Shown here: positions 1,247-64,000 of the stretch, one piece after another
How positions within the stretch are numbered: the first letter of the stretch is position 1
How the letters are laid out: each line of letters opens with the position of its first letter
DNA from: an uncultured Candidatus Saccharibacteria bacterium
GTDB taxonomy: Bacteria; Patescibacteriota; Minisyncoccia; Phycocordibacterales; UBA2100
Length of the DNA stretch: 64,000 nucleotides
Assembly: GCA_964545165.1 (NCBI GenBank)
Contig: CAZJEQ010000001.1
Coordinates: 65,971 to 129,970 of the forward strand
Direction of reading: 5' to 3'
The notes under the pieces: model-generated
Seen by the model: only the letters and a program-made list of their open reading frames with translations
Told to the model about the DNA's origin: nothing
The model's database searches: none
Made by a program: the position numbers and the translations under genes

Positions 1247-1271
1247 TGGATGAAGGCAACATAAAAACTGT

Positions 1272-3376: not shown

Positions 3377-3385
3377 ACAGATATA

Positions 3386-5876: not shown

Positions 5877-5960
5877 TGCGCAGGAGAGGACTCGAACCTC
5901 CACGCCCTTGCGAGCACTACCACCTCAAGGTAGCTTGTCTACCAATTTCAACACCTGCGC
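5877..5960 (-). tRNA. tRNA-Leu (anticodon GAG), class II with long variable arm
   Basis: Reverse complement: acceptor GCGCAGG/CCTGCGC, 3-bp D-stem, anticodon stem CTACC/GGTAG with loop TTGAGGT, 15-nt variable arm, T-arm GGAGG-TTCGAGT-CCTCT, discriminator A. Confidence 0.8.
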
Positions 5961-8334: not shown

Positions 8335-8340
8335 GTCACA

Positions 8341-8424
8341 CAGTATAACCTTCAAATTCTCAGCAGAGAATTTGAAGAGTTACACCCGGACGCATTCCTG
8401 CAGGAATGCGACGTTGGGTGTCAC
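8341..8424 (-). promoter_or_regulatory. copy A of ~82-bp double-palindrome promoter-proximal module (sense to gene 7873-8334)
   Basis: In gene sense: GTTACACCC...palindrome centred on CTGCAG, then perfect 12-bp IR CTTCAAATTCTC-AGCT/A-GAGAATTTGAAG, then GTTATACTG, 6-7 nt, ATG. 50 of 51 outer positions are identical to copy B at 63075-63156. Confidence 0.6.
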
Positions 8425-8443
8425 CTCTCACTGAGCCAGTGCG

Positions 8444-9181
8444 CTACGGTCGGATATCCTCGTGCGCTTTTGTGTGCGGCTTCCCGAATATGTGTACCCA
8501 AAAATGATTGAGTGCGTACACGAAGCCCGATCGCACGAGCCCTTCGTGCAGGAGTCGTCGGCCGGAGGCGTGGATGGGAAGTGCAAAGGTCCACTTCACA
8601 CCACCGATCTTCGTGAGCTCATTCGCAAGCGCTGTATCGTCGCCATAAAATTCGATATGTGTGTCGTAGCCACCGGCCTTTTCAAGTGCATCGCGGCGGA
8701 TCAAGACATTGCCGCCCTGAATAAACGAACCATGACGCAACAGAAAGCGGTTGATCACGTATACCAGCCAACCGCCCGCGTAGAAGAGCTTCACCATCGT
8801 GCGTGCGGGCGCTGAAAGGTCGTAGTAGTGAAAGGGGCCACTCACCGCGACCAGGCGCGCATCGCGCTCAAGTATCTGCAGGCCTTTTTCAAGCCAGCCT
8901 TCGGGCACCATCGTGTCCGCATCGATACTTGCAATGTAGTCGCCAGTGGACGCGCGAAATGCGGCCTGTCGTGCAGCATTAGCGCCTTTGATGGTGTGCT
9001 CTTCGACAACCCGAGCACGCTCGAACGATCGCGCAATCTCGCAGGTACGATCGGTTGAACCGTTGTCACCGATAACGACTTCGTAGGATATGCCAAGACG
9101 GTCACATTCGCTTGCTGCCGAAGCGATGCAGGCGCGAATATTTTTCTCCTCATTGAACGCGGGGATGACAAATGAGACCTT
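8444..9181 (-). CDS. family 2 glycosyltransferase (GT-A fold)
   Basis: MKVSFVIPAFNEEKNI...GDNGSTDRT...IDADT motifs. Track ORF extends to 9220; 9181 is the internal Met that gives the canonical GT2 N-terminus. Confidence 0.75.
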   Translation of the reverse strand, partial: KVSFVIPAFNEEKNIRACIASAASECDRLGISYEVVIGDNGSTDRTCEIARSFERARVVEEHTIKGANAARQAAFRASTGDYIASIDADTMVPEGWLEKGLQILERDARLVAVSGPFHYYDLSAPARTMVKLFYAGGWLVYVINRFLLRHGSFIQGGNVLIRRDALEKAGGYDTHIEFYGDDTALANELTKIGGVKWTFALPIHASGRRLLHEGLVRSGFVYALNHFWVHIFGKPHTKAHEDIRP

Positions 9182-9239
9182 CATGGATGACATGCTGCGT
9201 GAGAAAGCTCGTTTTGCCAAATGCTACCATGTATCCATG

Positions 9240-26551: not shown

Positions 26552-27700
26552 ATGGCGCGCGTAAAACTGAGCGAATACAAGGCGAAGAGTATATTGCTGG
26601 GTGATCAGTACCAGGGTTTGCAGCTGCGCTCGGGGGAGGTGTGGAATATGCCATCGCCCCCTTCGGTCGCCAAAGTCGATCAGGGTATCAAAAAGCGCAT
26701 GAAGCAGGGGCTCGTGGTCATCAACAAATCTGCGAGCGAGATGGAAAGCGCGATGCACGAATGGGAGGGCAAGGGCTTCTCGCAATTTCTCATTGAGCCA
26801 CTTCTGCCGCATGAGGGCAGCGAAGAGCAGTACCTCTCGCTGGAGCGCGTGCGCGAAGGAATCCGTGTGCTCCATGCTGCGGGCGGCGGTGTAGACATCG
26901 AAGAGCACCCTGAGAAGGTCGGACAGTACCTTATTCGTGAGTCGGCGGATCTCGCCGCGGTCGCCACGCAGATGCAGCTACCCGAGGATTTTCTGACGAA
27001 TCTCTATGAGCGGTTCAACAAAGATTTTTTCGCGTTTCTCGAGATCAATCCGCTCGTCGTGAAAGATGGTGTGGTGCATCTGCTCGACGCGGCAGTGCTC
27101 GTTGATAGTGCGGGAGAATTTTTCACCAAAAGCTGGGGAGGAGACGACGTGGTTCGTGCTGCCGCCAAGCACGAGGCTGAGGCGCGTGTGGAAGAACTTG
27201 CTGCGACGACACCCTCCTCGCTCAAGCTCTCGGTAATCAATCCCGACGGCGCACTCTTTTTCCTGCTCTCGGGTGGTGGTGGCTCCATCGTGATTGCCGA
27301 CGAAGCGCAGCTCGAAGGTGTCGGGGATTTGATGGGCAATTATGGCGAGTACAGCGGCGGACCGACTCGTGAGGAGACGTATCTGTACGCCAAAGAGGTG
27401 ATCGGCCTCATGCTCGGCTCGAAGGCCTCGAAAAAGGCGCTGATCATCGCGGGAGGCGTCGCGAATTTCACTGATGTGAAGAAAACTTTTGCGGGGATTA
27501 TTGATGCACTGAGCGAGGAGGCAGATGCGCTGCGCACTCAGGGCATCAAGGTCTTCGTGCGTCGCGGTGGTCCCAACGAAGCAGCAGGGCTCGCCTTGAT
27601 GAAAGACTTCTTGGAGAAAGAGCAGCTCCTCGGCTCTATGGCAGGTTCTGACGCAGTGATCACGAGCGCCATCGACGAGGCAATTCAATTCATCAAATAG
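26552..27700 (+). CDS. aclB: ATP-citrate lyase beta (small) subunit, ATP-grasp/SucC-like
   Basis: Blocks FLIEPLLPH, FAFLEINPLVV, NYGEYSGGPTREETYLYAKE, IIAGGVANFTDV, VFVRRGGPNEAAGL closely parallel the eukaryotic ACLY N-terminal region. Confidence 0.8.
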   Translation: MARVKLSEYKAKSILLGDQYQGLQLRSGEVWNMPSPPSVAKVDQGIKKRMKQGLVVINKSASEMESAMHEWEGKGFSQFLIEPLLPHEGSEEQYLSLERVREGIRVLHAAGGGVDIEEHPEKVGQYLIRESADLAAVATQMQLPEDFLTNLYERFNKDFFAFLEINPLVVKDGVVHLLDAAVLVDSAGEFFTKSWGGDDVVRAAAKHEAEARVEELAATTPSSLKLSVINPDGALFFLLSGGGGSIVIADEAQLEGVGDLMGNYGEYSGGPTREETYLYAKEVIGLMLGSKASKKALIIAGGVANFTDVKKTFAGIIDALSEEADALRTQGIKVFVRRGGPNEAAGLALMKDFLEKEQLLGSMAGSDAVITSAIDEAIQFIK

Positions 27701-27701
27701 T

Positions 27702-29483
27702 ATGACGGTCATCGAACAGGCACGAAAAGGCGCAGACGGCATCCTGGTCATCGGGAATCATCCGGTGATGGTGCAGGCGATTTTGGATTTTGATTTTCTC
27801 GCCGGCAAACAAACGCCGTCGATCATCGGTATGATCGCGGGGACGCGTAAGACACAGAAATTCTTTTTTGGCACCTCAGAGATTCTCGTTCCGTGCTTCA
27901 AATCGCTCGCCAAAGTGCCAGCAGGATTGGATGCTCGGGTGAAGTGGATGCTCAATGCACAATCCGGTCGCCGTACATTTGAGAGCACGGTGCAATTCTT
28001 CGAGCGTTTCCCAGAAGCCCTCGGCGGACACCTCTTTGCAGAAAATGTGCCCGAGAGTCACGCGACGGAATTAATTCGTCGCTTCGGCTCTCGCTATGTC
28101 ATCGCCGGTCCTTCGGGTGTGGGGATTCTCGTCTCGGGCCACCTCAAGCTTGGCGCCATCGGCGGCGTGGACCTCGCGCAGATCGAGGCGGGCAAGCTCC
28201 ACACGCCGGGTACCATCGCGGTTGTCTCGACCTCGGGGGGTATGACCAATGAGCTCATTCGCGCTGTCTCAGCGCGCGGCAAGCGAGTCTCATTCTCCAT
28301 TTCTATCGGCGGCGATCGGTTTCCCGTGACGTCGCTCACCGATGTACTCTCGCTTGCAGAAGCGGACGAGGAAACGAAAGCGATCGTGTACTTCGGTGAA
28401 TTGGGCGGCTCAGATGAGTATGAAATCGTCGAGATGATCAAGGGAGGGAAGCTCACCAAGCCCATCCTCTGCTACATCGCGGGTGTCATCGACGAGGCCT
28501 TCGACGAGCACATGCAGTTTGGTCATGCCAAAGCGCTCGTCGCACGCAAAGACGAAAGCGCGCGTGCCAAACGCGATGCGCTCTCGGCGGCAGGTGCGAT
28601 CGCGCCGGCGTCCTTCCCGCAATTCCTCACCGAAATCGAGAAGCTTCCCGGCGAGAGTCGTGATAGAGTCGTGGATGTAACACCGCTTATGAATCGCAAG
28701 GCAAGCATTCTTTCGACCCGTAAAATCGTCGATCTCGAGGCGGTCCCGGTATTTGTAAAAGACGGTGCGCTCGTGAAGCAGCCAGAAAATGCCTTCGCGG
28801 CAGCAGCGATCAAGGCGATGATCGGCAAGGAAGTTTCTCCCGAAACCGCCGCACTCGTCGAAAATATTTTTGAACTCCTTATTGATCACGGCGGTCATGT
28901 CTCCGGTGCGGTCAACACCATGATCACTGCTCGTGCCGGCAAAGACATGGTCTCCTCTCTCGCGACCGGACTTCTCACCGTAGGTCCGCGATTTGGTGGC
29001 GCGGTGAACGAAGCTGCGCGTGCGTGGCACGAGGGCGTGCAGGGCAAGAAAGATGCCGCCGTCTTCGTCGAGGAGAAAAACCGCGCCGGACAGCTCCTCT
29101 CGGGTATCGGCCATCGCAAATACCGCGTCGGTATCCCTGATCCGCGTGTCGCCGCGATTGCAGAATTCTCCACACTGCTCTCTGCGCATCCGCACTACGA
29201 TTTTGCGCGCGCCGTCGAAGGTGTCACGACTGCCAAGAACGGGAATCTCATTCTGAATGTCGATGGTGTCATGGCCGCGCTCATACTCGATATGCTTGCC
29301 GAGAAAGACGGCTTTACGGATGCAGAGCTCCAGGAGCTGATCGACGCGGAATTTTTCAATGCACTCTTTGTCATCCCGCGCACTGTCGGTTTCATCTCGC
29401 ACTTCATCGAACAAAAAAAGAATGACGAGGGACTCTTCCGCTTGCCGGACGAACTCCTCTTCGAGCAAGGGGATAGTGAGTAG
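27702..29483 (+). CDS. aclA: ATP-citrate lyase alpha (large) subunit: CoA-binding/SucD-like + citrate-synthase-like domain
   Basis: MVQAILDFDF, EILVPCFKSL, GGDRFPV, QFGHAKA (phospho-His), HGGHVSGAVNTMITARAGKDMVSSLATGLLTVGPRFGGA, GIGHRKYRVGIPDPRV, LILNVDGVMAALILDML all parallel ACLY blocks. Confidence 0.85.
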   Translation: MTVIEQARKGADGILVIGNHPVMVQAILDFDFLAGKQTPSIIGMIAGTRKTQKFFFGTSEILVPCFKSLAKVPAGLDARVKWMLNAQSGRRTFESTVQFFERFPEALGGHLFAENVPESHATELIRRFGSRYVIAGPSGVGILVSGHLKLGAIGGVDLAQIEAGKLHTPGTIAVVSTSGGMTNELIRAVSARGKRVSFSISIGGDRFPVTSLTDVLSLAEADEETKAIVYFGELGGSDEYEIVEMIKGGKLTKPILCYIAGVIDEAFDEHMQFGHAKALVARKDESARAKRDALSAAGAIAPASFPQFLTEIEKLPGESRDRVVDVTPLMNRKASILSTRKIVDLEAVPVFVKDGALVKQPENAFAAAAIKAMIGKEVSPETAALVENIFELLIDHGGHVSGAVNTMITARAGKDMVSSLATGLLTVGPRFGGAVNEAARAWHEGVQGKKDAAVFVEEKNRAGQLLSGIGHRKYRVGIPDPRVAAIAEFSTLLSAHPHYDFARAVEGVTTAKNGNLILNVDGVMAALILDMLAEKDGFTDAELQELIDAEFFNALFVIPRTVGFISHFIEQKKNDEGLFRLPDELLFEQGDSE

Positions 29484-34668: not shown

Positions 34669-36105
34669 ATGGCAAAGCCTCTCTACCTCACCACGACCTT
34701 GCCGTACGTAAATGCTGATCCGCACATCGGCTTTGCGCTCGAGATGGTGCAGGCTGATATCCTGGTGCGCTATCGCGGATTGCTCGGTGATGATGTGTTT
34801 TTCACCACGGGCACCGACGAGCACGGCCAGAAATTGTACGAGGCTTCGCAGAAGGCAGGGAAGAGCCCGCAGGAATACGTCGACGAATACGCCGCCAAAT
34901 TCCGCTCACTCAAAGACACATTGAATCTCTCGCCGGATCTGCATTTTATTCGCACCACTGATCCGCATCACATGGCAGCTGCGCAAGAAATCTGGAAGCG
35001 CTGTGCAGCCAAGGGTGATATTGAGAAGCGTACCTACAAGGGTCTCTACTGCGTGGGCGACGAAGCGTTTATGAAAGAGAACGACCTCGTGAATGGTCGC
35101 TGCCCCAATCATCCAAACATGGACCTCGTCGAGCTCGAGGAAGAGAATTATTTCTTCAAGCTCTCGAATTACCAGGAAAAAATCCTCGCGTATCTCTCCC
35201 GCGAAGGCGTGATCGTACCGGAATGGCGTCGCCAGGAGGCGATCACATTCGTCGAGAAAGGGCTCGAAGATTTCTCCATCTCACGCGTGAAAGAGAAGAT
35301 GCCGTGGGGTATTCCGGTCCCAGGCGACGATACGCAGGTGATGTACGTGTGGTTTGACGCGCTCACCAATTACATCTCGACGCTCGGCTGGCCCGAAGAT
35401 CACGACGGTAATTTCAAAAAGTTTTGGGAAGGAGGTGAGGTCATGCAGATGGCCGGGAAGGACCAGGTGCGATTCCAGTCGATCATGTGGCAAGCCATGC
35501 TCATGAGCGCGGGGATCAAAAACACCGATCGCGTCTTCTATCATGGCTTTATCACGAGTGGCGGGCAGAAGATGTCAAAATCGCTCGGCAATGTGATCGA
35601 TCCGATCGCGATTGCTGAGGAATATGGCATCGATGCACTGCGCTTTTTCTTGGCGCGCCACATTCACCCGTTTGAGGATTCCGATTTCACCATGGAGCGC
35701 TTCAAAGAGACGTACAACGCCGATCTCGCCAATGGGCTCGGCAATCTTGCGGCGCGTATCATGACGCTCGCCGAGACGCATCTTGAGCAGCCCATCGAGC
35801 GGCCGGAGCCGACGGGCCTTCCCGACGCCTACACGGGTGCGCTCGCGATCTACGACTACAATCGTGCGTTTGAATATGTCTGGAGCCGCATCGCCGCGCT
35901 CGATCAGCGCATCGCCGAAGAGAAGCCATTCTCGCTGGTGAAGACCGATGTGGAGGCAGGGAAGCGCATGATCGCGGAGCTTGCGGCTGAGCTCTACGCC
36001 ATCGTGCGATTGGTGACGCCGGTGATGCCTGAGACGAGTGCGAAGATCAAAGCGACGATTCTTGCCAACAAAAAGCCGGAAACCCTTTTCCCACGTAAGG
36101 AGTAG
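34669..36105 (+). CDS. metG: methionine--tRNA ligase (short form)
   Basis: PYVNADPHIGFA (HIGH-type) and KMSKSLGN motifs. Confidence 0.95.
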   Translation: MAKPLYLTTTLPYVNADPHIGFALEMVQADILVRYRGLLGDDVFFTTGTDEHGQKLYEASQKAGKSPQEYVDEYAAKFRSLKDTLNLSPDLHFIRTTDPHHMAAAQEIWKRCAAKGDIEKRTYKGLYCVGDEAFMKENDLVNGRCPNHPNMDLVELEEENYFFKLSNYQEKILAYLSREGVIVPEWRRQEAITFVEKGLEDFSISRVKEKMPWGIPVPGDDTQVMYVWFDALTNYISTLGWPEDHDGNFKKFWEGGEVMQMAGKDQVRFQSIMWQAMLMSAGIKNTDRVFYHGFITSGGQKMSKSLGNVIDPIAIAEEYGIDALRFFLARHIHPFEDSDFTMERFKETYNADLANGLGNLAARIMTLAETHLEQPIERPEPTGLPDAYTGALAIYDYNRAFEYVWSRIAALDQRIAEEKPFSLVKTDVEAGKRMIAELAAELYAIVRLVTPVMPETSAKIKATILANKKPETLFPRKE

Positions 36106-47095: not shown

Positions 47096-50000
47096 ATGAG
47101 TAAAGCATTAGCAACGAAAAACGTTGCGGCAGTGCTCCTTTCTGTAGCGATGGTTGTCACGTTCGCATTCGCATTTGCCACTCCGGCAAAGGCGCAGTCG
47201 ACGACTGACCTCCAGGCTCAGATCAACGCACTTCTCGCACAAATCGCAGCCCTTCAGGGCAATACGGGTTCTCAGCAGGTAGGGGGACTCAAATGCACCA
47301 CTACCTTCACACAGAACCTCAAACAGGGTTCAACAGGAGGTGAGGTCATGGCCCTCCAGAAGTTCCTCAACAGCGTTGATGGCACGCAAATTGCCACCGC
47401 TGGAGCAGGTTCTCCTGGTAATGAAACATCCTACTTCGGTGCAGCCACGAAAGCTGGCGTAATCAAGTTCCAGGAAAAATTCGCGGCGGACATCCTTACA
47501 CCGGTAGGCCTCTCAAAGGGCACCGGTAATTGGTTCGGTTCCACGCGCGCCAAGGCCAACGCACTCTGCGTCGGTGCAGGCACTGGTACTGGTACCGGCA
47601 CTGGTACCGGCACTGGCACGGCAACGGGCAGCACGACGACTGGTGGCAACATCATGGTCGGTGCTTCTTCGCAGCCGGCTAACTCGCTCGCTCCGGAAGG
47701 TGCAGCGCGTGTTCCGTTCACAACCCTCACTCTCACCAACACCTCGGGTGCTGCTGTCACGATCAACTCGATCGCAGTGCAGCGCACGGGTCTCGGTGCG
47801 GATGCGGTCTTCTCCGGTCTCGTCCTCGTGGATGAGATGGGTACGCAGCTCGGTACGAGCCGCACGCTCAACTCGAACCACCAGGCGAACGTCGGTGATG
47901 CCTTCGTGATCCAGCCGGGCCAGACCAAGACCCTCACGGTCGCTGGTAACATGGCTGCAACGCTCGACAGCTACGCAGGTCAGGTCGTCTCGATCTCTGT
48001 CATCGGCGTCAACACGTCGGCGACGGTCTCTGGTTCGCTCCCGATCTCGGGTGCTTCTCAGACGATCAACGGCACGCTCACGATCGGTGCAATCTCGGCA
48101 GGTCTCGGATCATCCGACCTCAACTCGGCTCAATCGAACACTTCGCTTGGAACGAGCAACCTCATCGGTGGCTCAATCCGCCTCACCGCGGGTTCTGCTG
48201 AAGATGTGTGGGTCAAGTCGATCCGCTGGAACCAGTCTGGTTCTGCTTCGGCTTCGGACCTTGCCAATGTCATGACTGTCATCGATGGTACGAACTATCC
48301 GGCGAACGTTTCGTCTGACGGCAAGTACTACACGACGGTCTTCCCAGGCAACGGCATCATGATCGCCAAGGGCCTCAACAAAGAAGTCACGGTCAAGTTT
48401 GACTCGGTCGGTGGTGCTGATCGCACAATCGAATTCGATGTCTACAAGAACACGGACATCTACGCTGTTGGTGGTACCTTCGGATACGGCATCGGTGTGA
48501 CGCAGAGCCAGAACGGCTCAGTGTCTACTGGTTCTGAATTCACGAGCGGTACGCCGTTCTACTCTGGCTCTGTCTTCACGATCGCAGCAGGTACGGTCAC
48601 GTCCCTCGCTCGCGCTAATGAAGTTCCGGCTCAGAACATCGCAGTTGGCGCTCCTAATCAGGCTCTCGGCGGTTTCGCCATGGACGTGAAGGGAGAGGCT
48701 ATCTCGGTGCAAAACCAGACCTACCACATCACCTACACCAACTCTGCAGCTGACAACGGCGAATACCTCACGGGTGTCCGTCTCGTCAACGAGAACGGTG
48801 CAGTTGTAGCAGGTCCGGTGGATGCAGTCGCTGACGGTAACCAGCAGAAGGTAACGTTCACCGACACGGTGACGTTTGCTACTGGTCGTCACGTCTACAC
48901 CCTCCAGGGTCAGCTTCCGACGACGATCTCCAACGGTCAGACGCTCGTTGCGTCGACCACTCCGGGTGCGGCAACGAATCCGGACTGGAGCAACGTTACC
49001 GGTCAGACGACTGGCAACTCGATCTCGCTCACGGCTCTTACGTCAATCGTTACGGGTAACACCATGACGGTCCGCACAGGCTCTGTCGTCTTCTCGACGG
49101 CATCACAGCCTGCTGCTCAGACGGTAGTCGCAGGTGTCTCTGGTCAGGCTGTTTCTGGCGTCGCATTCGACGCTACGCAGTCTGGTGAGGACGTCCGCTT
49201 CAACTCAGCCAAGTTCAAGTTCAACGAAATCGGTACGTCGTTGAACGCGGGCGAAATCCCGACGAACTGCTTCGCCTTCGATGGTGCAACGCGTCTTAAC
49301 GACACGGCTGTCAACATCACGGGTACAGCTGGCGACGATTCTGCTGACACAAACTTCACCTTCAACACGCCTCTCGTAGTCACGAAGGGCACGGTGAAGA
49401 CCGTCACGATCAAGTGTGATATCCCATCAGGCGCTACCGGCTCATTCAGCTGGGGTGTCGTCTCGACCGCTACCTTCACCGGTACCGGCACGCAGTCGAC
49501 GCAGGGCATCACGCCTACGTCTTCGACGGGTGCTACACAGACGGGTAACACGATGACTCTTGCTTCGGGCGGTAACCTCACGGTCACTCTCGATTCATCG
49601 TCACCGTCGTACAAGGTCGCTGCTGTTGGTGCCAATGGCATCAGCGGTCAGACGCTCTCTGTCCTCCGCTTCTCAGGTACGAACGAAAACATGCGTCTCG
49701 ATCGCGTAGCGCTCGAGCTCGCAGGTGCTTCTTCGTCTCCTGCAAACATCAACCAGGTCACCCTCTGGGCTCCTGTTGATGGTAGCGGCATGTACTCGTC
49801 TTCGGGCACGATGACGCAGGTTGGTACCGCGATCTTCGCTGGTACTGATTACGCTACTTCGACCCTCTCGAGCACGCTCATCATTCCGGCCAACCAGTAC
49901 GCGATCGTGACGGTCAAGGGCGACCTTGCCGGCATCTCGCTCAACGGTTCCGGTACGTCGGGCTCGCTCCTCGCGGTCAACTACGATGGCGGTGATTCCA

Positions 50001-51729: not shown

Positions 51730-51828
51730 ATGAAGTACATTAAATCCGCAATTCAGCGCTCCATCCTCCCGATTCTCATCGCTGTCGTCGCCTCCGTGAT
51801 CTTCGTCGTCGCCATGCTCCAGGCCTAG
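51730..51828 (+). CDS. possible 32-aa hydrophobic micro-protein (MKYIKSAIQRSILPILIAVVASVIFVVAMLQA)
   Basis: Short in-frame ATG ORF after a terminator. Overlaps the 3' end of the convergent regulator gene by 4 nt. Weak support. Confidence 0.15.
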   Translation: MKYIKSAIQRSILPILIAVVASVIFVVAMLQA

Positions 51829-52340
51829 CGCCGCCTGAGCTCAAAATGATCGCGCAACGCGCGATCATTTTCCAATTTATCGACCACCATATACAGCACC
51901 TCCTTACCGAGGCGGTAGTCTGTCTTGAGCAGCGCCACCAACTCCTCACAATCGTAGGGGTACACCCATGCCGAATTCTGGAGCTTAAGAAAGCCAATTC
52001 TCCTCAAAGTATCTCTTAGGACTGCGCGGGCAGCTCTTCTTCTCTCTGGTATATCGAAAATGACCATCCGCCATTTGCTATCCCATTTTTGTTGCTCTGC
52101 TGGCTTGAGAGCGTGACGGAGCAAGAAAGCCCGGCCCTCATGTGTAATCTCATATCCGCTTTTGCGCTTGGTGACCAGGCCCTTTTTGATAAGTTTCCCC
52201 AACGCACTTCGGGTCTTCTCGCGCTCGGCACGCACAATGTGCTTTCCAACAAGGCCTGCGAGATTTGGTGCGATTACCACAAGGCTTAGGAGGCCACCGA
52301 CCTGAAGCGTCGTTAAAATAGTCATCCGAATCTTGGTCAT
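51825..52340 (-). CDS. wHTH + Cas2-like domain protein (PaaX-type architecture); candidate transcriptional regulator
   Basis: N-terminal winged helix (RSALGKLIKKGLVTKRKSGYEITHEG). C-terminal WRMVIFDIPERRRAARAVLRDTLRRIGFLKLQNSAWVYP follows the Cas2 core pattern (beta strand, D, R-rich, ..G..QNSVF). Track ORF starts at GTG 52400; first ATG at 52340. Confidence 0.5.
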   Translation of the reverse strand: MTKIRMTILTTLQVGGLLSLVVIAPNLAGLVGKHIVRAEREKTRSALGKLIKKGLVTKRKSGYEITHEGRAFLLRHALKPAEQQKWDSKWRMVIFDIPERRRAARAVLRDTLRRIGFLKLQNSAWVYPYDCEELVALLKTDYRLGKEVLYMVVDKLENDRALRDHFELRRR

Positions 52341-52376
52341 TCTCACTTCTTTCTTCAAATCCGCCTCTAGTCCCAT

Positions 52377-52415
52377 GCAGATATAATTATGCGACCGCAC
52401 ATTTATATCTGCAGC
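52377..52415. repeat. 39-bp near-perfect palindrome, copy 1 (TGCAGATATAATTATGCGACCGCACATTTATATCTGCAG)
   Basis: Reverse complement matches copy 2 at 55817-55855 at 38/39 positions. Lies in the divergent intergenic region between the regulator gene and 52480 gene. Contains TATAAT-like boxes on both strands. Confidence 0.8.
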
Positions 52416-52479: not shown

Positions 52480-53079
52480 ATGTCCACGGCTAAGAAAGTT
52501 TGGAGGGGCGTGCGCTGGCCACTCCTCGCATTGCTGATCGTGTGGGCGGGTTTCGTGCTCGCCGAGGTGCATTGGCCGGTGAACAAGGAGCGATCTGATG
52601 CAGCGGTAGCCGCTATCCAGGCGCAGAGGCTAACCATGGCCGATGTAGATGGTTCGAATCTTCCGCCTGAGCCCGATCCGAAAAAGGTGAATGCCACGAT
52701 CGCTGGCATCGACGCAAACGAGAATGGAATTCGAGACGATGTGGAGCTCGCTATCTTCAAGAAGTACCCGAATAACAAAAAAGTCCGCGCCGCTGCCTTG
52801 CAATATGCGCATGCGCTCCAGTCTCGGTTAACGCAAGTAATCGATGAAAACACCTGGCAAGCTTCTGTCTATATGAAATCGCGTGCCTACAGCTGTGTTT
52901 CTAAAGCGACCGATCTCAGTGCGGGCGCAAAAAGACTGGCTGCAATACAGGAGGTGACGGATTTTATTCAAAATCTAGTTCTTAATACTGCATCTCGAAA
53001 AGACAGAGACGTTAAATTAGAGAAATTCGCGACTTCTGCCGAAACTGCAGCGGGCAACAATTGTGATGTGTACGAATAA
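52480..53079 (+). CDS. hypothetical membrane-anchored/secreted protein, lower GC
   Basis: ORF track 199 aa with N-terminal hydrophobic helix. TAATTT box 5 nt before the ATG. Confidence 0.45.
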   Translation: MSTAKKVWRGVRWPLLALLIVWAGFVLAEVHWPVNKERSDAAVAAIQAQRLTMADVDGSNLPPEPDPKKVNATIAGIDANENGIRDDVELAIFKKYPNNKKVRAAALQYAHALQSRLTQVIDENTWQASVYMKSRAYSCVSKATDLSAGAKRLAAIQEVTDFIQNLVLNTASRKDRDVKLEKFATSAETAAGNNCDVYE

Positions 53080-53088
53080 ATAAACTCT

Positions 53089-55809
53089 ATGAAGCGAGCG
53101 CTCAGTCTCGTGGCTCTGACAACAGTCCTCGGTTTCCCAGCTTTACTCTTTGCGGACAGTTGTTCGACACAAGGCTATTCGGTCTTCATAGTAAATGGAA
53201 TTTTTAATACTCAGGAGAAAGCAGACGAAGGTTCCGATAAGCTTAAAGATTTACTGGGGGACAGTTTGAATAAAGAAGCACTGACGGTACGATCCGCCTA
53301 CAATCCGACCCATATAGCCGGTTTGGGCGATGTTGTGCAGGCAGTGACGCAGGCTTTTAACCAACCAGTTAGTAATTTTGACCGAGACACTATTTTACAT
53401 CGTATTCATTCTCAACTTAAGACGCAAAAAATCTTATTAGTCGGACATTCGCAAGGGACTTTTTACACAAACGAGCTCTATAAATATCTGACGACGCATG
53501 GGGTGCCGAAAGAATCTATCGGCGTCTACAATATCGCGACTCCGGCGAGTTATGTGGAAGGGGGTGGTGGGTATGTGACTTCTACCAATGACAAGATTAT
53601 TAATCTTGTTCGCAATACAGAGGTTGATGGAAATCTCAGTATTCATCTCAATTCATACTACGTGCTCGGCAACACGGTGAATTCTGCGCTGCGTGCGAAC
53701 ATTACAGTGCCCAAAGAGCCGGGCTACGACCAGAGCGATTTTGGTGGGCATAAACTCAGTGTGTATCTCGACGGTGCTGCACCGCGAATCATGAGCGATA
53801 TCGATGCGTCTTTGCGTCGACTCAAGGCGAGCGGGGGCTCAAGTAGTGAGTCGTGTTTTGAACCACCTGTCGAGGACATCTCGTATAAAGCCAAGTCTCT
53901 CTTCTATGCGATGGTGGATCCGCTTGCTGAGGGGACCAAGACGGTCGCGGTCGCAACGCGAAATGGTGCCGAAGGATTTACCGACTACGTCGCTGCAGGT
54001 ATCAATGATACAAAAAGCTTTGCGCAATCAGTCTTCAAGAATCTCGCGTCTGCGAACAACAGCTCGACCAATCAGGCGGCCGCAGCCGTGCTCGCGACTC
54101 CAGTTATCACTACAAAGCCCGTGCCGCAAAACGCACCCAAGCCTCCTCCTGCGCCAGTCACAAAAGTAACTGTTCAGACGCCGAGCCAGGCCGATTCGGT
54201 AAAGCTGCCTGTGCAATCGCCCGATATGGAAAAAGCGCCGGAGGAAAATAATCGAGAGCCAGTAGCGCCCGCTGTCGTTTCGACAGCGGGTTTTGGTGGT
54301 GGACAGCCCAGCTCGCCACAACAACAAGATCCTACGATGGTTGCGCTTTCTATAACTGCGCCTGCCAACAACGCCTTAGTAGCGACATCCTCGGTCGTTC
54401 TTGTCGGGACGGCAGACGTGGGCGCGTTAGTCACCGCGAGTTTCAATTCGTTGAGTGCGACGACAACAGCGGACGGGGCGGGTGAGTGGACTGTGCAACT
54501 CACTCTGCTCGAAGGAACCACCACGGTGACGGTGAGCGCGGTTGATGCAGCAGGGAAGAGTTCAGCAGTGCTGTCTCGCGACATAGTGGTAGATACAATG
54601 GCACCCACAGCGCCGACGCTCGGCATACTCGAATGCGCATCGACCATCGTGACAGGGCTCTGCGTCGTTCCGATTACTGCCGCGACGCTCGATTGGTCGG
54701 ATTCTGGCGCGGACCACTATCGCATTTTTAGAGACGGAGGATATGTCGCAAGTTTCATAGCGACCTCGAGCACTCAAGCAATCTCGACCAACGCAACTTC
54801 GAGTTTCGAGGTAGTTGCGTACGATCTCGCTGGCAATGCTGCGACCTCAAGTGCTGTAAATATCTACGCACTGTCTCAATCTGTCATCATCAACGAAATA
54901 GGATGGGGTGGGACCGACACCGGCAGTGTCTCAGGACAGCAATGGATCGAGCTCAAAAATATGTCTGCATTTATGATCGATCTCTCGCACGTGGTGATCT
55001 CGCGCTCTGGCGGAGCGGAGATAGCGCTCGCTGGCGCAAGCATTCCTGCTCACGGCGGGCTCGTCGTCGAGCAAACAGACATTGCATTCACCGGCACAAA
55101 CAAGCTCGTCACTCCTTTCTCAGATCTCTCCACGGTCGCGGCAGAACAACTTGCGATTACCTGGCGTGGAACGCTACTTGATGCGAGTCCTGCGGTCAGC
55201 ACTTGTTCATCGTGGTGTTCGGGAGGGCTCAATGTATCAATTGGCACCAATGTGAGTGGTGTTGCTGGGTTCACTTCGTCACTCTCGATGGAGAGAGTGA
55301 CGAATGCCGCAGATGGAACGCTCGCTTCTAGCTGGCAGAGTACGGATAGCTACAACGCGGCTTTCTGGGGTACGCCCAATGTTGAGAATAGCAGTGGCTT
55401 GCCGGAGAGTGGGGTCATTTGTAGCGCCGGCGGCTTACTGGTGCCAAGTGCAACAACGCGTCCCTACGATACCGGCAATGTTTCGTGCACCTACCTAATG
55501 AAATTTATCTCGAGCGGCACGACTGGCGCACCTCGCTATGCCGGTCTCTACATGGGCACCGTGGGAAGCTCGACCGTGATCAACGCGCATTTCTTCAGCA
55601 AGTCTATGCAACGCGAGAGTACTGATGTGGTGCCGCCGGGGACTCCTGCTGGCACAGAATTCTTCTTTGTGATCTACGAAGCGCCGACATGGATGGATGC
55701 GGTCACGCCATTCGGAATGTATTTCACCAAGGGCTCCGACCCTGCAAATGGCGGTGCTCCGCCGCCGCACGGCAATTACGTAACCATCCCATTCGTCTAC
55801 CAACCCTGA
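53089..55809 (+). CDS. secreted multidomain protein: alpha/beta-hydrolase (lipase/esterase GHSQG) + Big-like repeats + lamin-tail domain (LTD)
   Basis: Signal peptide. LLVGHSQGT nucleophile elbow. Central T/S/A-rich Ig-like region. VIINEIGWGG...QWIELKN...IDLSHVVI matches the LTD signature. Confidence 0.7.
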   Translation: MKRALSLVALTTVLGFPALLFADSCSTQGYSVFIVNGIFNTQEKADEGSDKLKDLLGDSLNKEALTVRSAYNPTHIAGLGDVVQAVTQAFNQPVSNFDRDTILHRIHSQLKTQKILLVGHSQGTFYTNELYKYLTTHGVPKESIGVYNIATPASYVEGGGGYVTSTNDKIINLVRNTEVDGNLSIHLNSYYVLGNTVNSALRANITVPKEPGYDQSDFGGHKLSVYLDGAAPRIMSDIDASLRRLKASGGSSSESCFEPPVEDISYKAKSLFYAMVDPLAEGTKTVAVATRNGAEGFTDYVAAGINDTKSFAQSVFKNLASANNSSTNQAAAAVLATPVITTKPVPQNAPKPPPAPVTKVTVQTPSQADSVKLPVQSPDMEKAPEENNREPVAPAVVSTAGFGGGQPSSPQQQDPTMVALSITAPANNALVATSSVVLVGTADVGALVTASFNSLSATTTADGAGEWTVQLTLLEGTTTVTVSAVDAAGKSSAVLSRDIVVDTMAPTAPTLGILECASTIVTGLCVVPITAATLDWSDSGADHYRIFRDGGYVASFIATSSTQAISTNATSSFEVVAYDLAGNAATSSAVNIYALSQSVIINEIGWGGTDTGSVSGQQWIELKNMSAFMIDLSHVVISRSGGAEIALAGASIPAHGGLVVEQTDIAFTGTNKLVTPFSDLSTVAAEQLAITWRGTLLDASPAVSTCSSWCSGGLNVSIGTNVSGVAGFTSSLSMERVTNAADGTLASSWQSTDSYNAAFWGTPNVENSSGLPESGVICSAGGLLVPSATTRPYDTGNVSCTYLMKFISSGTTGAPRYAGLYMGTVGSSTVINAHFFSKSMQRESTDVVPPGTPAGTEFFFVIYEAPTWMDAVTPFGMYFTKGSDPANGGAPPPHGNYVTIPFVYQP

Positions 55810-55816
55810 AAAACCC

Positions 55817-55855
55817 TGCAGATATAAATGTGCGATCGCATAATTATATCTGCAG
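55817..55855. repeat. 39-bp near-perfect palindrome, copy 2 (TGCAGATATAAATGTGCGATCGCATAATTATATCTGCAG)
   Basis: Begins 8 nt after the stop of 53089-55809. Inverted-orientation copy of the 52377-52415 element. Inner 10-bp perfect palindrome TGCGATCGCA. Confidence 0.8.
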
Positions 55856-61560: not shown

Positions 61561-62193
61561 ATGGCAATCAAAGAAGATTTTCTCGCATCGTTCATCGGAA
61601 ATAGGGAGCGCGCGCAGCTGATGCGCGTCTTTGTTTTTAATCCATCAGAAGTCGTCAGTCTCGCGACGGCAGCCAAGCGTGCCGGTATCTCAGGCAAAGC
61701 AGCCGCGCGGGAATTGAAGGTCCTCGAAAAGCTCGGCATTGTGAAGCGTGGGCGCTCGTTCTCGGTCGCGCTGGCCAATGGCACCAAGCGCATGGTCCAG
61801 GGCAAGCAGCGCGAAGATCTCTGGGTACTCAATACTGATTTCAAACACCTTCGTGGTGTCTCCGGCTTCATCCACGAGACCTCGCCGGTCAAATTCGACA
61901 ACATCGTCGGGGCGCTTCGCCCCGGTGGGAAGATCTCGGCCGTCATTCTCTCGGGCTCCTTTGTGGGAGATCCGACGCGTCCGGCAGACTTGATCGTCGC
62001 GGCAGATCCGCTCCATGAGCGCAAACTCGAAAGCGCCATTCGTCAGCTGGAGCCGCAGTTTGGACGCGAGATCCGCTTTGCCGCGTTTTCGACCCCGGAA
62101 TTCCGCTATCGCCTCACCATCCAGGATCGCCTCATTCGCGATACCCTCGATTTTCCGCACCTCGTCCTCTTGGACAGAACGCGTCTCCTGTAG
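61561..62193 (+). CDS. hypothetical wHTH-containing protein
   Basis: VSLATAAKRAGISGKAAARELKVLEKLGIVKR wHTH. TACTAT box 6 nt before the ATG. Confidence 0.4.
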   Translation: MAIKEDFLASFIGNRERAQLMRVFVFNPSEVVSLATAAKRAGISGKAAARELKVLEKLGIVKRGRSFSVALANGTKRMVQGKQREDLWVLNTDFKHLRGVSGFIHETSPVKFDNIVGALRPGGKISAVILSGSFVGDPTRPADLIVAADPLHERKLESAIRQLEPQFGREIRFAAFSTPEFRYRLTIQDRLIRDTLDFPHLVLLDRTRLL

Positions 62194-62337: not shown

Positions 62338-63024
62338 ATGATAGTTACTCAGTCAGCGGCTTCGGTGCAGGGTTCGTTTTACGATATGTGGTACACCGTC
62401 GCTCAGTACGTCCCGGCAATCTTGGCTGCGGTCGTCGTCTTCCTCATCGGGTGGATCGTCGGCATCATCCTCTACCGCGTGGTAGTGGAAGTCGTCCGCG
62501 TGCTCCGCATCGATGACGCTTTGCGTGCAGCCGGCATGAACGATGCTGCCAAGCAGGCGGGCTTCAATCTCGACACGGGCAAGTTCCTCGGTCGCCTCGT
62601 CGAGTGGTTTGTCATCTTGGTGTTCCTCGTTGCGGCGCTTGATATCCTCAACCTCACGCGCGTGACGGTCTTCCTCCAGACGGTGGTACTCCTCTACTTG
62701 CCGCAGGTCATCGTCGCTTCGCTCATCATCATCTTGGGCGCAATCGTCGCAGAGGTGGTACGTGGTCTCATCTCGCACTCGGGCAAAGCCACGGGTGCTC
62801 ACGGCGCAAATCTCGCTGGCACGATTGCCAAGTACGCGATTCTCGCATGGGCAGTGATGGCCGCGCTCCAGCAGCTCGGCATCGCCGCAGACATGATCCA
62901 GACGCTCTTCACTGGTATCGTCGTCGCTCTCTCGCTCGCATTCGGCCTTTCCTTCGGCCTCGGCGGCAAAGAAGCAGCAGGACGCACCATCGAGCGCCTC
63001 CGCTCCGAAATCGCACACAAGTAA
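62338..63024 (+). CDS. membrane protein with repeated 'conserved TM helix' units (MscS-N-terminal-like)
   Basis: Three similar hydrophobic repeats in 228 aa. Confidence 0.45.
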   Translation: MIVTQSAASVQGSFYDMWYTVAQYVPAILAAVVVFLIGWIVGIILYRVVVEVVRVLRIDDALRAAGMNDAAKQAGFNLDTGKFLGRLVEWFVILVFLVAALDILNLTRVTVFLQTVVLLYLPQVIVASLIIILGAIVAEVVRGLISHSGKATGAHGANLAGTIAKYAILAWAVMAALQQLGIAADMIQTLFTGIVVALSLAFGLSFGLGGKEAAGRTIERLRSEIAHK

Positions 63025-63044
63025 TTTCGGCCTCGTTTCTCGAC

Positions 63045-63075
63045 ACGACCCCGCCCGTGGCGGGGTCGTGTTTTG
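63045..63075 (+). terminator. rho-independent terminator
   Basis: ACGACCCCGCCCGTGGCGGGGTCGTGTTTTG. Confidence 0.7.
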
Positions 63076-63156
63076 TTACACCCGGACATGTCGCTGCAGC
63101 AACATGTCCGGGTGTAACTCTTCAAATTCTCAGCTGAGAATTTGAAGGTTATACTG
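63075..63156 (+). promoter_or_regulatory. copy B of ~82-bp double-palindrome promoter-proximal module (sense to gene 63162-63839)
   Basis: GTTACACCCGGACATGTCGCTGCAGCAACATGTCCGGGTGTAAC, then CTTCAAATTCTC-AGCT-GAGAATTTGAAG, then GTTATACTG, 5 nt, ATG. TATACT -10-like box lies 6 nt before the start codon. Confidence 0.6.
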
Positions 63157-63161
63157 CGCGC

Positions 63162-63839
63162 ATGCAAGCAGTCATTCTCGCCGCCGGTCGTGGTACGCGC
63201 ATGGGTGCGCTCACCGAGTCGACCCCGAAGCCGATGCTCCTCCTCAATGGTCGCCCGGTCCTTGAGTACATTTTTGATTCGCTTCCCGATAGTGTCGACG
63301 AAATTATTGTTGTCGTGGGGTACCTGGGCGGCGTCATACAAAAGCATTTCGGCGGTGTTTATATAGACAAAAAGATATTGTATGTCGAACAGGAGACACT
63401 CAACGGTACTGCCGGTGCACTCTGGGCGGCACAAGAGCTGATTCACGGACCGTTTCTTGTGCTCAACGGCGACGATATGTACGAGCGAGAAGACATGGAG
63501 GCGTGCTTCAAGTACGACTGGGCGGTACTCGTCTATAAGATGGATCACCTGGAAGGCGCGAGTGTGATCTTCGATGCAAACAATGTCGTGACCTCTATCG
63601 AGGAAAACGATGCTCGCGATCGTGAGAGCGGGTACGCGAACGCGGCACTGTACTTTTTGCAGCCAACAATTTTCGAATACCCGCTGATTCCAAAGAGGCC
63701 GGGCTCATCAGAATTCGGGTTGCCACAAACCATCATTGCCGCAGGATTACCGCTTGTGGCAGTACCAGCTACGTCGTGGGTTCGCCTCACTGAACCGAGC
63801 GACATTCAAAAGGCTGAAGAGATACTTGCAGCGCGTTGA
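63162..63839 (+). CDS. sugar-phosphate nucleotidyltransferase (NTP_transferase family)
   Basis: MQAVILAAGRGTRMGALTESTPKPML G-rich pyrophosphorylase signature. Confidence 0.8.
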   Translation: MQAVILAAGRGTRMGALTESTPKPMLLLNGRPVLEYIFDSLPDSVDEIIVVVGYLGGVIQKHFGGVYIDKKILYVEQETLNGTAGALWAAQELIHGPFLVLNGDDMYEREDMEACFKYDWAVLVYKMDHLEGASVIFDANNVVTSIEENDARDRESGYANAALYFLQPTIFEYPLIPKRPGSSEFGLPQTIIAAGLPLVAVPATSWVRLTEPSDIQKAEEILAAR

Positions 63840-64000
63840 CACCACTGCGTATCAGCAGTCTCGCATTCGCTTAACCGCTGCTTCATTGCTGTCGGCGTAC
63901 AACGTATAGGGAGGTCGATTACTAGTTACCAGCTAGTCGTACACATATGGCACAAGAAAACAGCACGACGTCGAAGCGTGGCTTCGCTGCGATGGACAAA

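Follow-up and report, generated by a model that had tools for sequence, protein, structure and literature searches.

We found a clade-restricted, noncoding repeat of approximately 75 to 83 nt in the genome of a Patescibacterium; the repeat belongs to one small clade of these ultra-small bacteria. Its unit consists of two DNA hairpins, which we call P1 and P2, and judging from the copies that we recovered, it has been copied to three or more unrelated loci. The repeat probably has more in common with a small repeated, and probably mobile, element than with an ordinary binding site for a regulator. Our preferred interpretation, which we hold tentatively, is that it represents a hairpin-based, nonautonomous repeat similar to REPINs or MITEs that brings a consensus −10 promoter box with it or is targeted to one.

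Two copies of the element, 81 to 83 nt long, are located in the window, i.e., the entire 64-kb stretch of DNA that we analyzed. Copy A spans 63075 to 63155 on the plus strand and copy B spans 8424 to 8342 on the minus strand, so that they lie 55 kb apart, among housekeeping genes. Both copies are built in the same order: hairpin P1 with the apex CTGCAG, a single T, hairpin P2 with 12-bp arms, the 9-mer GGTTATACT, and a short spacer leading to the ATG of the downstream gene, such that TATACT is 6 nt from the ATG in copy A and 7 nt from it in copy B. The features are as follows.

63041 to 63074, plus strand: terminator of the upstream MS-channel-like gene, with a 13-bp GC-rich stem (63043 to 63071) and then a T run
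63075 to 63118, plus strand: P1 of copy A, a 44-nt palindrome with apex CTGCAG and outer arms GTTACACCCGGAC/GTCCGGGTGTAAC
63120 to 63147, plus strand: P2 of copy A, CTTCAAATTCTC-AGCT-GAGAATTTGAAG, with perfect 12-bp arms
63148 to 63161, plus strand: 3′ tail of copy A, GT, then TATACT (63150 to 63155, the −10 hexamer), then the 6-nt spacer GCGCGC; ATG at 63162
63162 to 63839, plus strand: downstream gene A, apparently leaderless, for a 225-amino-acid sugar-1-phosphate nucleotidylyltransferase (NTP_transferase, Pfam E value of 2e-16)
8444 to 9220, minus strand: gene upstream of copy B and on the same strand as it, for a family 2 glycosyltransferase (GT2), with no separate terminator ahead of P1
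8379 to 8424, minus strand: P1 of copy B, GTGACACCC-AAC-GTCGCATTCC-TGCA-GGAATGCGTC-C-GGGTGTAAC, with a 3x1 internal loop
8350 to 8377, minus strand: P2 of copy B, CTTCAAATTCTC-TGCT-GAGAATTTGAAG
8335 to 8349, minus strand: 3′ tail of copy B, GT, then TATACT (8347 to 8342), then the 7-nt spacer GTGTGAC; ATG at 8334
7873 to 8334, minus strand: downstream gene B, for a predicted membrane protein of 153 amino acids, following the GT2 gene

The terminator lies outside the element and sets its left boundary at copy A, while P1 of copy B begins 19 nt past the stop codon of the GT2 gene. An initial, sequence-only reading had proposed that the two sites are the same element, and our results bear this out. 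A repeat finder paired 8341 to 8403 with 63094 to 63156 as an inverted repeat of 63 nt with 92% complementarity, and the 28-nt palindrome CTTCAAATTCTC-WGCT-GAGAATTTGAAG occurs at these two sites of the window only (0 expected, 100 shuffles). The same reading had described a perfect 12-bp inverted repeat, whose arms are indeed intact in both copies; in copy A, P2 extends to 14 bp when its self-complementary loop is counted. It had also described the outer arms of P1 as conserved. This is true of the right arm GTCCGGGTGTAAC, which is common to copies A and B, but the left arm GTTACACCCGGAC is intact only in copy A, where the 22-nt arms of the near-perfect P1 palindrome are 95% complementary. A covariance model constructed from copies outside the window scored the window copies at 107 bits (copy B) and 85 bits, and an unfiltered covariance-model scan of all 64 kb returned no third copy. 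When folded as single-stranded DNA, the whole of copy A had a free energy of −30.7 kcal/mol (z = −9.4). The downstream genes had been identified correctly as well. The protein encoded by gene B matched no family in Pfam or NCBIfam; its homologs (approximately 50% identity) also come after GT2 genes in other Patescibacteria, and they lack the element.

The TATACT at the end of the element is very probably the −10 box of a leaderless promoter, as had been suggested from the sequence. A TAnnnT hexamer is placed 6 to 8 nt before the ATG in at least 22 genes of the window (4 to 5 nt in two), and TATACT, the commonest −10 hexamer of the genome, is in such a position in 7 of its 10 window occurrences. 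When 22 promoters were aligned, there was no −35 consensus, and 15 of them had a G at −14. In addition, no Shine-Dalgarno sequence is found between the element and the ATG. On this pattern, the source genome appears to rely throughout on leaderless promoters that need only a −10, which means that DNA inserted just upstream of the −10 would be tolerated. The predicted promoter of copy A was TTCTCA-17-TATACT, and P2 spans about −42 to −15. We considered whether P2 supplies a −35 and dropped the idea, given that the leaderless promoters of this genome show no consensus there. We likewise set aside a half-site, AGGAATTTGAAG, upstream of another TATACT promoter (57915, minus strand), which had neither a palindromic partner nor a match to the model.

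Six further copies, four intact and two decayed, were recovered from four related Patescibacteria contigs. Three of these contigs (L023, L024, and L026) carry the locus orthologous to that of copy A (locus A), which is syntenic across genomes. Altogether, the eight copies are found at three different genes: the NTP-transferase gene (four genomes), the gene for the 153-amino-acid membrane protein, and a gene on the fourth contig (L006) whose product starts MEITKLGH. The N terminus of this third product, MEITKLGHCCLLIK, belongs to what we take to be a metallo-beta-lactamase fold; the gene is not obviously related to glycans, and its neighbor upstream of the element is a divergent tRNA gene. The element was extragenic in all cases. 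Each of the six intact copies abuts a start codon, in a single orientation, and ends in the identical 9-mer followed by 6 to 8 nt and the ATG. The right junction (..RG/GTTATACT) was also identical in all six, and many copies scattered away from genes were not seen. Despite their different genes, the L006 copy and copy B of the window were 94% identical over 85 nt; the sequence of the element appears to track the genome and not the locus.

Searches with individual motifs added little to this set. Scanning genome contigs with TCAAATTCTCNNNNGAGAATTTGA returned 12 loci, among which L006 was the only true copy; the others were tRNA-like genes, Prevotellaceae repeats, and similar chance palindromes. 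Metagenome contigs scanned with YTCAAATTCTCNNNNGAGAATTTGAR yielded five loci, none with the element, and no element was found in a scan of viral contigs or by blastn against plasmids and phages. The only P2-like site lacking P1, a palindrome followed by TATATC and an ATG on contig L009, falls within a TatD-like coding sequence and was attributed to chance. To detect miscalled open reading frames, we compared the antisense open frames of the element with a protein database and obtained no matches.

Support for insertion comes from orthologous sites without the element. In two sister lineages, locus A consists of the terminator, a plain −10, and the ATG. The empty site of L027 reads terminator-GGTAGACT-6 nt-ATG, and those of L028 to L030 read terminator...TACAAT-6 nt-ATG. 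The upstream terminator is found ahead of the element in L023, L024, and L026 and ahead of the bare −10 in L027 and L028, and the hexamers of the empty sites (TAGACT and TACAAT) differ from the TATACT of the element. The difference between empty and filled sites is consistent with a clean insertion placed after the T run of the terminator and before the −10, with boundaries that are approximate. Moreover, the element occurs in tandem on two contigs (1567 to 1639 followed by 1640 to 1722 on L006; 757 to 827 followed by 831 to 913 on L026). In each pair, only the promoter-proximal copy is intact, with scores of 94 to 106 bits versus 45 bits for the distal, decayed copy. The empty orthologous sites, the decayed tandem copies, and the REPIN-like architecture lend better support to a small REP/MITE-like element with a promoter, which was one of the two options left by the sequence-only reading, than to an operator.

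The compensatory pattern that had been reported for the inner arms of P1 is true for copies A and B, and the orthologs widen it greatly: when tested on the recovered copies, covariation appears strong in both hairpins. With five sequences, double changes occurred in 10 of 31 pairs, compared to 4.8 ± 1.4 in shuffles, which reached 10 in none of 500 trials; with eight sequences, there were 12 such pairs and 29 cells. Overall, 87.7% of cells were paired, versus 22 to 48% in controls where partners were slid by one to three columns, which had double changes in 0 to 3 pairs. Double changes affected 7 of the 10 pairs of the P1 inner helix; in the outer helix (nine pairs), 82% of cells were paired. 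Within one genome, copies A and B have wholly different P1 inner stems, each of which is nonetheless self-complementary. P2 is identical in both window copies and has three compensated changes relative to the copy at the orthologous locus of L023. Alongside these changes, approximately 47 positions are invariant across copies. The P1 arms CCGGGYRTAAC and CACCC are conserved, and three parts are invariant or nearly so across genomes: the invariant apical core of P2 (ATTCTC-N4-GAGAAT), the apex CTGCAG, and the junction CCGGG..TAACTC. The left outer arm reads GGTGACACCC-MAC-GTC in six of eight copies, including copy B, resulting in a conserved 3x1 internal loop and a T-T mismatch. Because template-switch correction can also keep long DNA palindromes complementary, the covariation is not proof of an enzyme that depends on hairpins.

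The proximal copy has remained intact at locus A in four lineages with 58 to 75% protein identity, while flanking intergenic DNA is only about 50% identical. A selfish element would need repeated reinsertion to be kept in this way, and purifying selection at the level of the host, that is, a function, explains the persistence more simply. It is therefore necessary to consider that the element is a cis-regulatory module of the host, with P2 as the operator of a dimeric protein and P1 as a second, structural, or insulating site, which was duplicated to recruit genes into a regulon. The exact register to the −10 and the ATG shared by six intact copies is consistent with this possibility, as are the near-invariant core, apex, and junction amid diverged intergenic DNA and the survival of the promoter-proximal tandem copy alone. 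P2 is the same within a genome and changes symmetrically between genomes, as expected of operators that track a coevolving protein, and of the three downstream genes, two have a connection to glycan synthesis. Nevertheless, we regard a regulatory module as rather unlikely. P2 was never found without P1, and no other promoter in the 64 kb has it. Between orthologs with 75% protein identity, 3 of 12 arm positions of P2 had turned over with compensation, which is fast for an operator. A protein that binds duplex DNA does not require the P1 inner stem to be self-complementary, and since this stem is wholly different within one genome, no single sequence-specific duplex binder can read P1. No candidate regulator was found; a conserved HTH gene near copy A (61561 to 62193) is also present in L027 and L028, both of which lack the element. 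The third target, on L006, is not obviously an envelope gene. For these reasons, the proposal of an operator that co-regulates envelope glycan genes through a dimeric regulator is not supported in the form in which it was made. Operators of the CIRCE/HrcA type resemble P2 in being long inverted repeats beside a −10 with an invariant core. However, CIRCE-type operators are generally nearly invariant across phyla and found alone, whereas the outer arms of P2 turn over with compensation among close relatives and P2 is always coupled to P1.

The covariation could instead reflect a structured RNA. If the hairpins were transcribed in the sense direction, by read-through or from an unrecognized promoter, they might serve as a 3′ stabilizer or processing signal, as a signal for termination or insulation, or as a 5′ leader. 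Besides strong covariation, both hairpins have loops of tetraloop size (UGCA and WGCU), G-U pairs are present on the sense strand in L023 and L024, and the GT2 gene upstream of copy B is codirectional and without another terminator. Roles in mRNA are known for repeats of the REP and BOX types. However, a canonical intrinsic terminator lies directly upstream of the element at locus A in four genomes, the L006 copy has the divergent tRNA gene on its upstream side, and the genome-wide pattern puts the predicted start of transcription past the hairpins, close to or at the ATG. The lack of a Shine-Dalgarno sequence after the element and of a U tract after either hairpin points the same way. The wobble evidence points both ways, because the sense-strand C-A and A-C mismatches of copy L026b would be wobble pairs on the opposite strand only. 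Within the window, Rfam thresholds were passed by tRNAs only, and the best Rfam matches in 62950 to 63250 scored 20 to 26 bits versus thresholds of 40 to 55 bits. Altogether, a role in RNA seems improbable.

A resemblance to the attC sites of integrons was also weighed. GTGTAAC-T-[P2]-GTTATAC mimics R″...R′ boxes (RYYYAAC...GTTRRRY) with one extrahelical base, which would make the downstream genes cassette-like. Each 7-mer fits the consensus at six of seven positions in the correct orientation, predicted folds pair TAAC with GTTA around P2 with the T bulged, and start codons are a few nucleotides past the R′-like box. Even so, this reading is almost certainly wrong and is largely refuted: the 64 kb contain no integron integrase and no cassette array; the copies are far apart among housekeeping genes, with locus A syntenic; and the R″-like box has changed (GCATAAC in L024 and L026b) without compensation in the R′-like box. 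The span of 43 nt falls below the range of known attC sites (57 to 141 nt), and TATACT is fully explained as the commonest −10.

The same pairing raises the idea that the element is a DNA-structure switch for −10-only leaderless promoters, tied to topology or replication without a dedicated regulator and copied because of the control that it confers. The invariant TAAC that closes P1 has two possible partners in the predicted fold of each intact copy: the 5′ end of P1 or, on the far side of P2, a GTTA whose TA also begins the TATACT hexamer. If supercoiling or a transient single-stranded state made P2 extrude as a hairpin or cruciform, the −12/−11 bases that sigma must capture would be masked or uncovered. 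We consider such a switch highly doubtful.

Under the REPIN/MITE-like reading that we tentatively prefer, a RAYT- or IS200-type HUH/Y1 enzyme would require the hairpins, as single-stranded DNA, in order to copy or insert the element. Dependence on such an enzyme would explain why complementarity has been kept despite drift in sequence. The element would either carry the consensus −10 of the genome or insert directly 5′ of a GTTATAC-like −10 box, which its own 5′ end, GTKACAC, resembles. With promoters that need only an extended −10, an insertion would leave the gene expressed and could survive selection in a compact genome. Regulatory effects, such as occlusion, insulation from read-through, or sensitivity to supercoiling, would be secondary. 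The window contains no transposase genes apart from one large serine recombinase. A gene for a Y1 transposase (Pfam Y1_Tnp, 27 bits; cutoff, 23 bits) is present in the sister genome L027, and the best NCBIfam match of its product is a REP-associated tyrosine transposase. This RAYT-like gene adjoins a family of palindromic repeats, CGAAGGTGWCACCTTYG, that has an 11-mer, AAGGTGACACC, in common with the junction between the P2 end and the P1 start of tandem copies. The repeats of L027 belong to a different family, and the 20 kb sampled from this genome lacked the element. Three other leads gave nothing useful. CTGCAG and CAGCTG were both near expected frequency, so avoidance of restriction sites was rejected; GC skew gave no usable signal in the window for relating copy orientation to replication; and the likeness of the GTTACAC/GTGTAAC arms to parS half-sites was judged too weak.

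Compared with known systems, the element is most like REPINs, of which the published description states that no two spacers are identical and that all can form a hairpin. P1 likewise has conserved inverted arms around a variable spacer that keeps its hairpin, and the element is likewise extragenic and noncoding, with tandem and decayed copies. REPINs persist vertically over very long times, and the element too appears to pass down vertically, occupying one and the same locus in related species. As in REP-RAYT systems, a RAYT-like gene with palindromic repeats of its own is present in L027. Those systems have a single-copy RAYT gene flanked by the repeat that it serves, and no RAYT gene is among the genes of this window. 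REPIN families usually number tens to hundreds of copies per genome (two were present in the 64 kb here) and are mostly 3′ of genes and in either orientation, whereas intact copies of the element are promoter proximal and in one orientation. The REP unit is a short imperfect palindrome, while CCGG is the sole internal palindrome of the 13-nt arm GTCCGGGTGTAAC, and the unit described here includes a second, unrelated hairpin and a −10 box. Finally, the hosts of REPIN-RAYT systems in the papers that we consulted are gammaproteobacterial, whereas this host is a Patescibacterium.

Similarities extend to PATEs and their peel-and-paste transposition; PATEs are miniature elements derived from IS200/IS605 that are also short and noncoding with two hairpins and that insert 3′ of a fixed tetra- or pentanucleotide. 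Like them, the element lacks obvious terminal inverted repeats and long target duplications and has a fixed junction sequence. Its ends, GTKACACC... and ...GGTTATACT, are direct-repeat-like and not inverted, with GTTA at both ends in copy A and L026a only. The newest copy is beside the fixed flank and the older one has been pushed distal, the order that repeated insertion 3′ of a retained target would produce. On the opposite strand, TAAC ends both the flank (ATAAC) and the element (GTGTAAC); it resembles a target or cleavage tetranucleotide of the IS608 kind, which we treat as a lead only. In contrast, the end hairpins of IS200/IS605 elements are alike, whereas P1 (22-nt arms, CTGCAG) and P2 (12-bp stem, WGCW) share no sequence, and the window yielded neither a full-length parent IS nor a TnpA. 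Correia elements of Neisseria, similar promoter-bearing MITEs, and BOX elements of pneumococcus are small intergenic stem-loop repeats that supply or alter promoters, and the element is similarly a small repeated stem-loop just upstream of genes. Correia-like MITEs differ in having terminal inverted repeats, TA target duplications, and large numbers, and the −10 of the element is placed for leaderless transcription.

The genomes of Patescibacteria are tiny and densely packed, and little has been written on their noncoding DNA; in our literature search, neither REP-like repeats nor mapped promoters turned out to have been described for this group. The copies described here indicate that one Patescibacteria clade contains a family of structured repeats that has spread between loci and settled at the one position that its promoters tolerate, immediately before a −10 that works without a −35. 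Should the REPIN-like reading be true, hairpin-based, transposase-dependent repeats would extend well past the proteobacterial groups for which the papers that we consulted describe them, and the element would be a natural example of such a repeat fused to a promoter. If it is regulatory instead, it would be among the first candidate cis-regulatory devices described for Patescibacteria. Genetic systems are now emerging for these bacteria, and the 83-nt unit with its consensus −10 could be tried there as a small native promoter cassette.

The repeated element is 81 to 83 nt long and consists of a hairpin with the apex CTGCAG (P1), a single T, a second hairpin with 12-bp arms (P2), and a tail whose -10 box leads to an ATG. 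The two copies in the window and the genes they precede are as follows, each copy written in the direction of its gene.

63075-63155 (+), copy A: GTTACACCCGGACATGTCGCTGCAGCAACATGTCCGGGTGTAAC-T-CTTCAAATTCTC-AGCT-GAGAATTTGAAG-GT-TATACT-GCGCGC-ATG
63162-63839, gene A: sugar-phosphate nucleotidyltransferase
8424-8342 (-), copy B: GTGACACCCAACGTCGCATTCCTGCAGGAATGCGTCCGGGTGTAAC-T-CTTCAAATTCTC-TGCT-GAGAATTTGAAG-GT-TATACT-GTGTGAC-ATG
7873-8334 (-), gene B: 153 aa, assigned to no family, lying after a GT2 glycosyltransferase gene

A repeat finder paired 8341-8403 with 63094-63156 (63 nt, 92% complementary). P2, a 28-nt palindrome, occurs in the window only at copies A and B, and no site is expected by chance. 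The sequence-only reading had described both segments correctly overall, except that the outer arms of P1 are both intact in copy A only; the left arm in copy B is imperfect and differs from that of copy A. Copy A follows an MS-channel-like gene whose canonical terminator spans 63043-63074. Homologues of genes A and B carry the names Kaiserbacteria, Parcubacteria, Paceibacterota, or Patescibacteria, which places the window in a Patescibacteria genome; its G+C content is 56%.

The window contains other palindromes. One at 5839-5868 is a perfect 30-bp palindrome (CGAATGACCAGGACA|TGTCCTGGTCATTCG) lying 8 nt from tRNA-Leu (5876-5960), and its core GGACATGTCC is also found in P1 of copy A. A second repeat family, CTGCAGATATAA...TTATATCTGCAG (39-42 nt; 52373-52414 and 55814-55855, 97% complementary), brackets the gene pair at 52480-55809, which encodes a 199-aa protein and a 906-aa Ig-like-domain protein, and adjoins a PaaX_M/Cas2-like-domain gene (51825-52400, minus strand). 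In L027, a related contig, a different palindrome family fills the same two syntenic slots.

In at least 22 window genes, including those with ATGs at 1694-, 11340-, 20515+, 29615+, 31665+, 42398-, 50874+, and 57915-, the start codon is preceded at 6-8 nt by TAnnnT (at 4-5 nt in two of them). Among 22 aligned promoters, position -14 was G in 15 and no -35 consensus was visible; of the 10 TATACT hexamers in the window, 7 are placed in this way. Leaderless promoters thus appear to be used genome-wide and to be -10-only. Because the same hexamer placement recurs, the TATACT of the element is very probably an ordinary -10, the commonest of this genome, and the missing -35 consensus suggests that promoter recognition can do without the DNA upstream of about -15. 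A minority of genes have a strong Shine-Dalgarno sequence instead (e.g., GGAGGTGAGGTCATG at 35430-35445 and 47335-47350).

We searched for relatives by scanning one genome per species and the contigs of the closest gene A homologues. The only true relative that the species scan yielded was L006, with the label Candidatus Saccharibacteria, in which a whole element precedes a gene starting MEITKLGHCCLLIK; despite the different locus, this copy is 94% identical to copy B over 85 nt. Three further genomes have orthologues of locus A (MS-channel gene, terminator, element, NTP-transferase, and KGG gene).

L023: gene A protein identity 75%, element in the same register
L024: gene A protein identity 61%, element in the same register
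L026: gene A protein identity 58%, element in the same register

In both L026 and L006, the intact copy (94-106 bits) is directly preceded by a second, decayed one (45 bits). The same synteny without the element was found in L027 and L028-L030 (57-58% identity), where the empty sites read terminator-GGTAGACT-ATCCGC-ATG and terminator...TACAAT-GCACGT-ATG, respectively, and an unfiltered covariance-model scan of these loci gave no match. The element is also absent upstream of gene B homologues at ~50% identity. From these syntenic relatives and gene B homologues, we infer that the element was gained in a sub-clade, and it now stands in front of at least three unrelated genes. Metagenome, viral, plasmid, and phage searches returned no further copies. 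In L009, an unrelated Patescibacteria genome, a near-identical P2-like palindrome (4179-4202, TTCAAATTCTC-TATC-GAGAATTTGAAG) with a (TTGGAAA)n run ahead of it lies within a TatD-like coding sequence and was rejected as a chance match. Two short sequences just before P1, GCGATTCTAT (L024, ~2395-2411) and CTCAGTGAGAG (copy B, 8425-8443), look like P2-arm remnants of an older upstream copy; if they are, tandem copies may once have occupied further loci besides the two where they are seen intact. Downstream of gene A, the non-coding DNA up to the KGG stress-protein gene (63840-63946) is ~56% identical overall to L023 (~2070-2170), with conserved blocks TTGAC..ATCAGC and GCTTAACCGYTGCTTCATTGCT that may be a promoter or leader RNA.

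The structure tested comprised the P1 outer helix, a 3x1 internal loop, the P1 inner helix, apex TGCA, one T, and P2 with a 4-nt loop. Standard pairs filled 87.7% of cells with five copies and likewise with eight, the eight-copy alignment being fitted to the model and hence biased towards structure. Both sides had changed in 10 of 31 pairs across five copies (shuffles, 4.8 ± 1.4; 0/500 reached 10) and in 12 pairs across eight (15 and 29 cells, respectively). Covariation scores were 0.316 against 0.155 for shuffles (five copies) and 0.302 against 0.148 (eight copies). With partners slid 1-3 columns as a control, there were 0-1 such pairs and 23-48% pairing (five copies) or 0-3 pairs and 22-46% (eight copies). 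The compensatory pattern first noticed in the P1 inner arms is real, and the orthologous copies add many more cases of it. The P1 inner stem reads ATGTCGC, GCATTCC, GCAATCC, ACGCCTC, TCATCCC, ACATGCC, or GTATTCC, each with a matched partner and with one internal mismatch apiece in copy A and L026b; the outer stem ACACCC/GGGTGT becomes GTGCCC/GGGCAT in L024. P2 arms at the orthologous locus differ by three double changes (CTTCAAATTCTC/GAGAATTTGAAG in the window versus CCTGAGATTCTC/GAGAATCTCAGG in L023). Six intact copies share 47 invariant positions, including CTGCAG, CCGGG, TAACTC, GAGAAT, and GGTTATACT.

Single-stranded DNA folds of the copies had energies of -15 to -31 kcal/mol (z-scores, -2.6 to -9.4), and in several the invariant TAAC pairs with the GTTA overlapping the -10. 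Wobble pairs occur on the sense strand in L023 and L024 and on the antisense strand in L026b, a pattern compatible with folding of either strand. A structured RNA, as the sequence-only reading had also proposed, is improbable: at locus A the element directly follows a terminator in four genomes, in L006 it is flanked upstream by a divergently oriented tRNA gene, the layout of the promoter implies that transcription begins downstream of both hairpins, and no Rfam family matches. An attC-like site is very improbable.

A plain operator co-regulating envelope glycan genes is disfavoured, too. P2 is only ever found together with P1, its arms turn over fast, two copies in one genome have unrelated yet self-complementary P1 inner stems, and relatives lacking the element still carry the conserved local HTH gene. 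What remains after these objections is most likely a small repeat that propagates by way of its hairpins, because it was gained in one sub-clade at several unrelated loci, the distal one of tandem copies decays, copy sequence tracks genome rather than locus, and conserved inverted arms flank a hypervariable spacer that keeps its hairpin.

More specifically, we tentatively identify a REPIN/MITE-like repeat, at slightly less than an even chance. P1 closely fits the published description of REPINs, which are known to persist vertically over very long periods. L027 encodes a RAYT-like Y1 transposase with an HFH motif (1-543, minus strand; Pfam Y1_Tnp, 27 bits, above cut-off), which in NCBIfam matches REP-associated tyrosine transposase best (35 bits, below cut-off). 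Adjoining it is the palindromic repeat CGAAGGTGWCACCTTYG, with four copies in 20 kb (positions 567, 4109-4140, and 13888), once as an inverted doublet; this repeat has the 11-mer AAGGTGACACC in common with the junction between units of the element. The group therefore possesses such enzymes and repeats. A Y1/HUH enzyme could copy the element via single-stranded hairpin intermediates, and the element would either bring a consensus -10 along or insert directly 5' of a GTTATAC-like -10, which its 5' end, GTKACAC, resembles. If insertion recurred at a target that is retained, the newest copy would adjoin the -10, in agreement with the observed arrangement.

Against the REPIN/MITE-like reading, copies are few, every intact one is promoter-proximal in a single orientation, the P1 arms are not palindromes in their own right, and P1 shows no relationship to P2. 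Template-switch correction of DNA palindromes could also preserve complementarity without selection. The window lacks a transposase: in Pfam searches of ~60 ORFs, the sole hit of transposase or integrase type was a large serine recombinase (1810-3153; Resolvase, Recombinase, and zinc-ribbon domains). This gene lies ~1 kb from tRNA-Arg (4072-4144), with intervening ORFs of no family and lower G+C (0.51 over 1-4000), and the region may be an integrated element. Elsewhere in the window, two adjoining genes with ATP-citrate-lyase-type domains (26552-29483; Citrate_bind plus ATP-grasp, and CoA-ligase plus citrate-synthase C-terminal) form a metabolic module noteworthy in a Patescibacteria genome. 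Finally, four diverged lineages have an intact proximal copy although flanking intergenic DNA is ~50% identical; for this, host-level selection for a function is a simpler explanation than recurrent re-insertion. A host regulatory module is possible but unlikely; it and the REPIN/MITE-like reading are not mutually exclusive. A small share of the probability goes to none of the readings considered.

The repeat is a genuine, conserved, structured element. Its structure and distribution are firmly established, the mechanism is inferred, and the sample comprises eight copies. In the literature, we found neither such repeats nor mapped promoters described for Patescibacteria. The element is akin to known small hairpin-forming intergenic repeats (REPINs, PATEs, and Correia elements), from which it is set apart by its fixed fusion to a leaderless-promoter -10 and by its host group.
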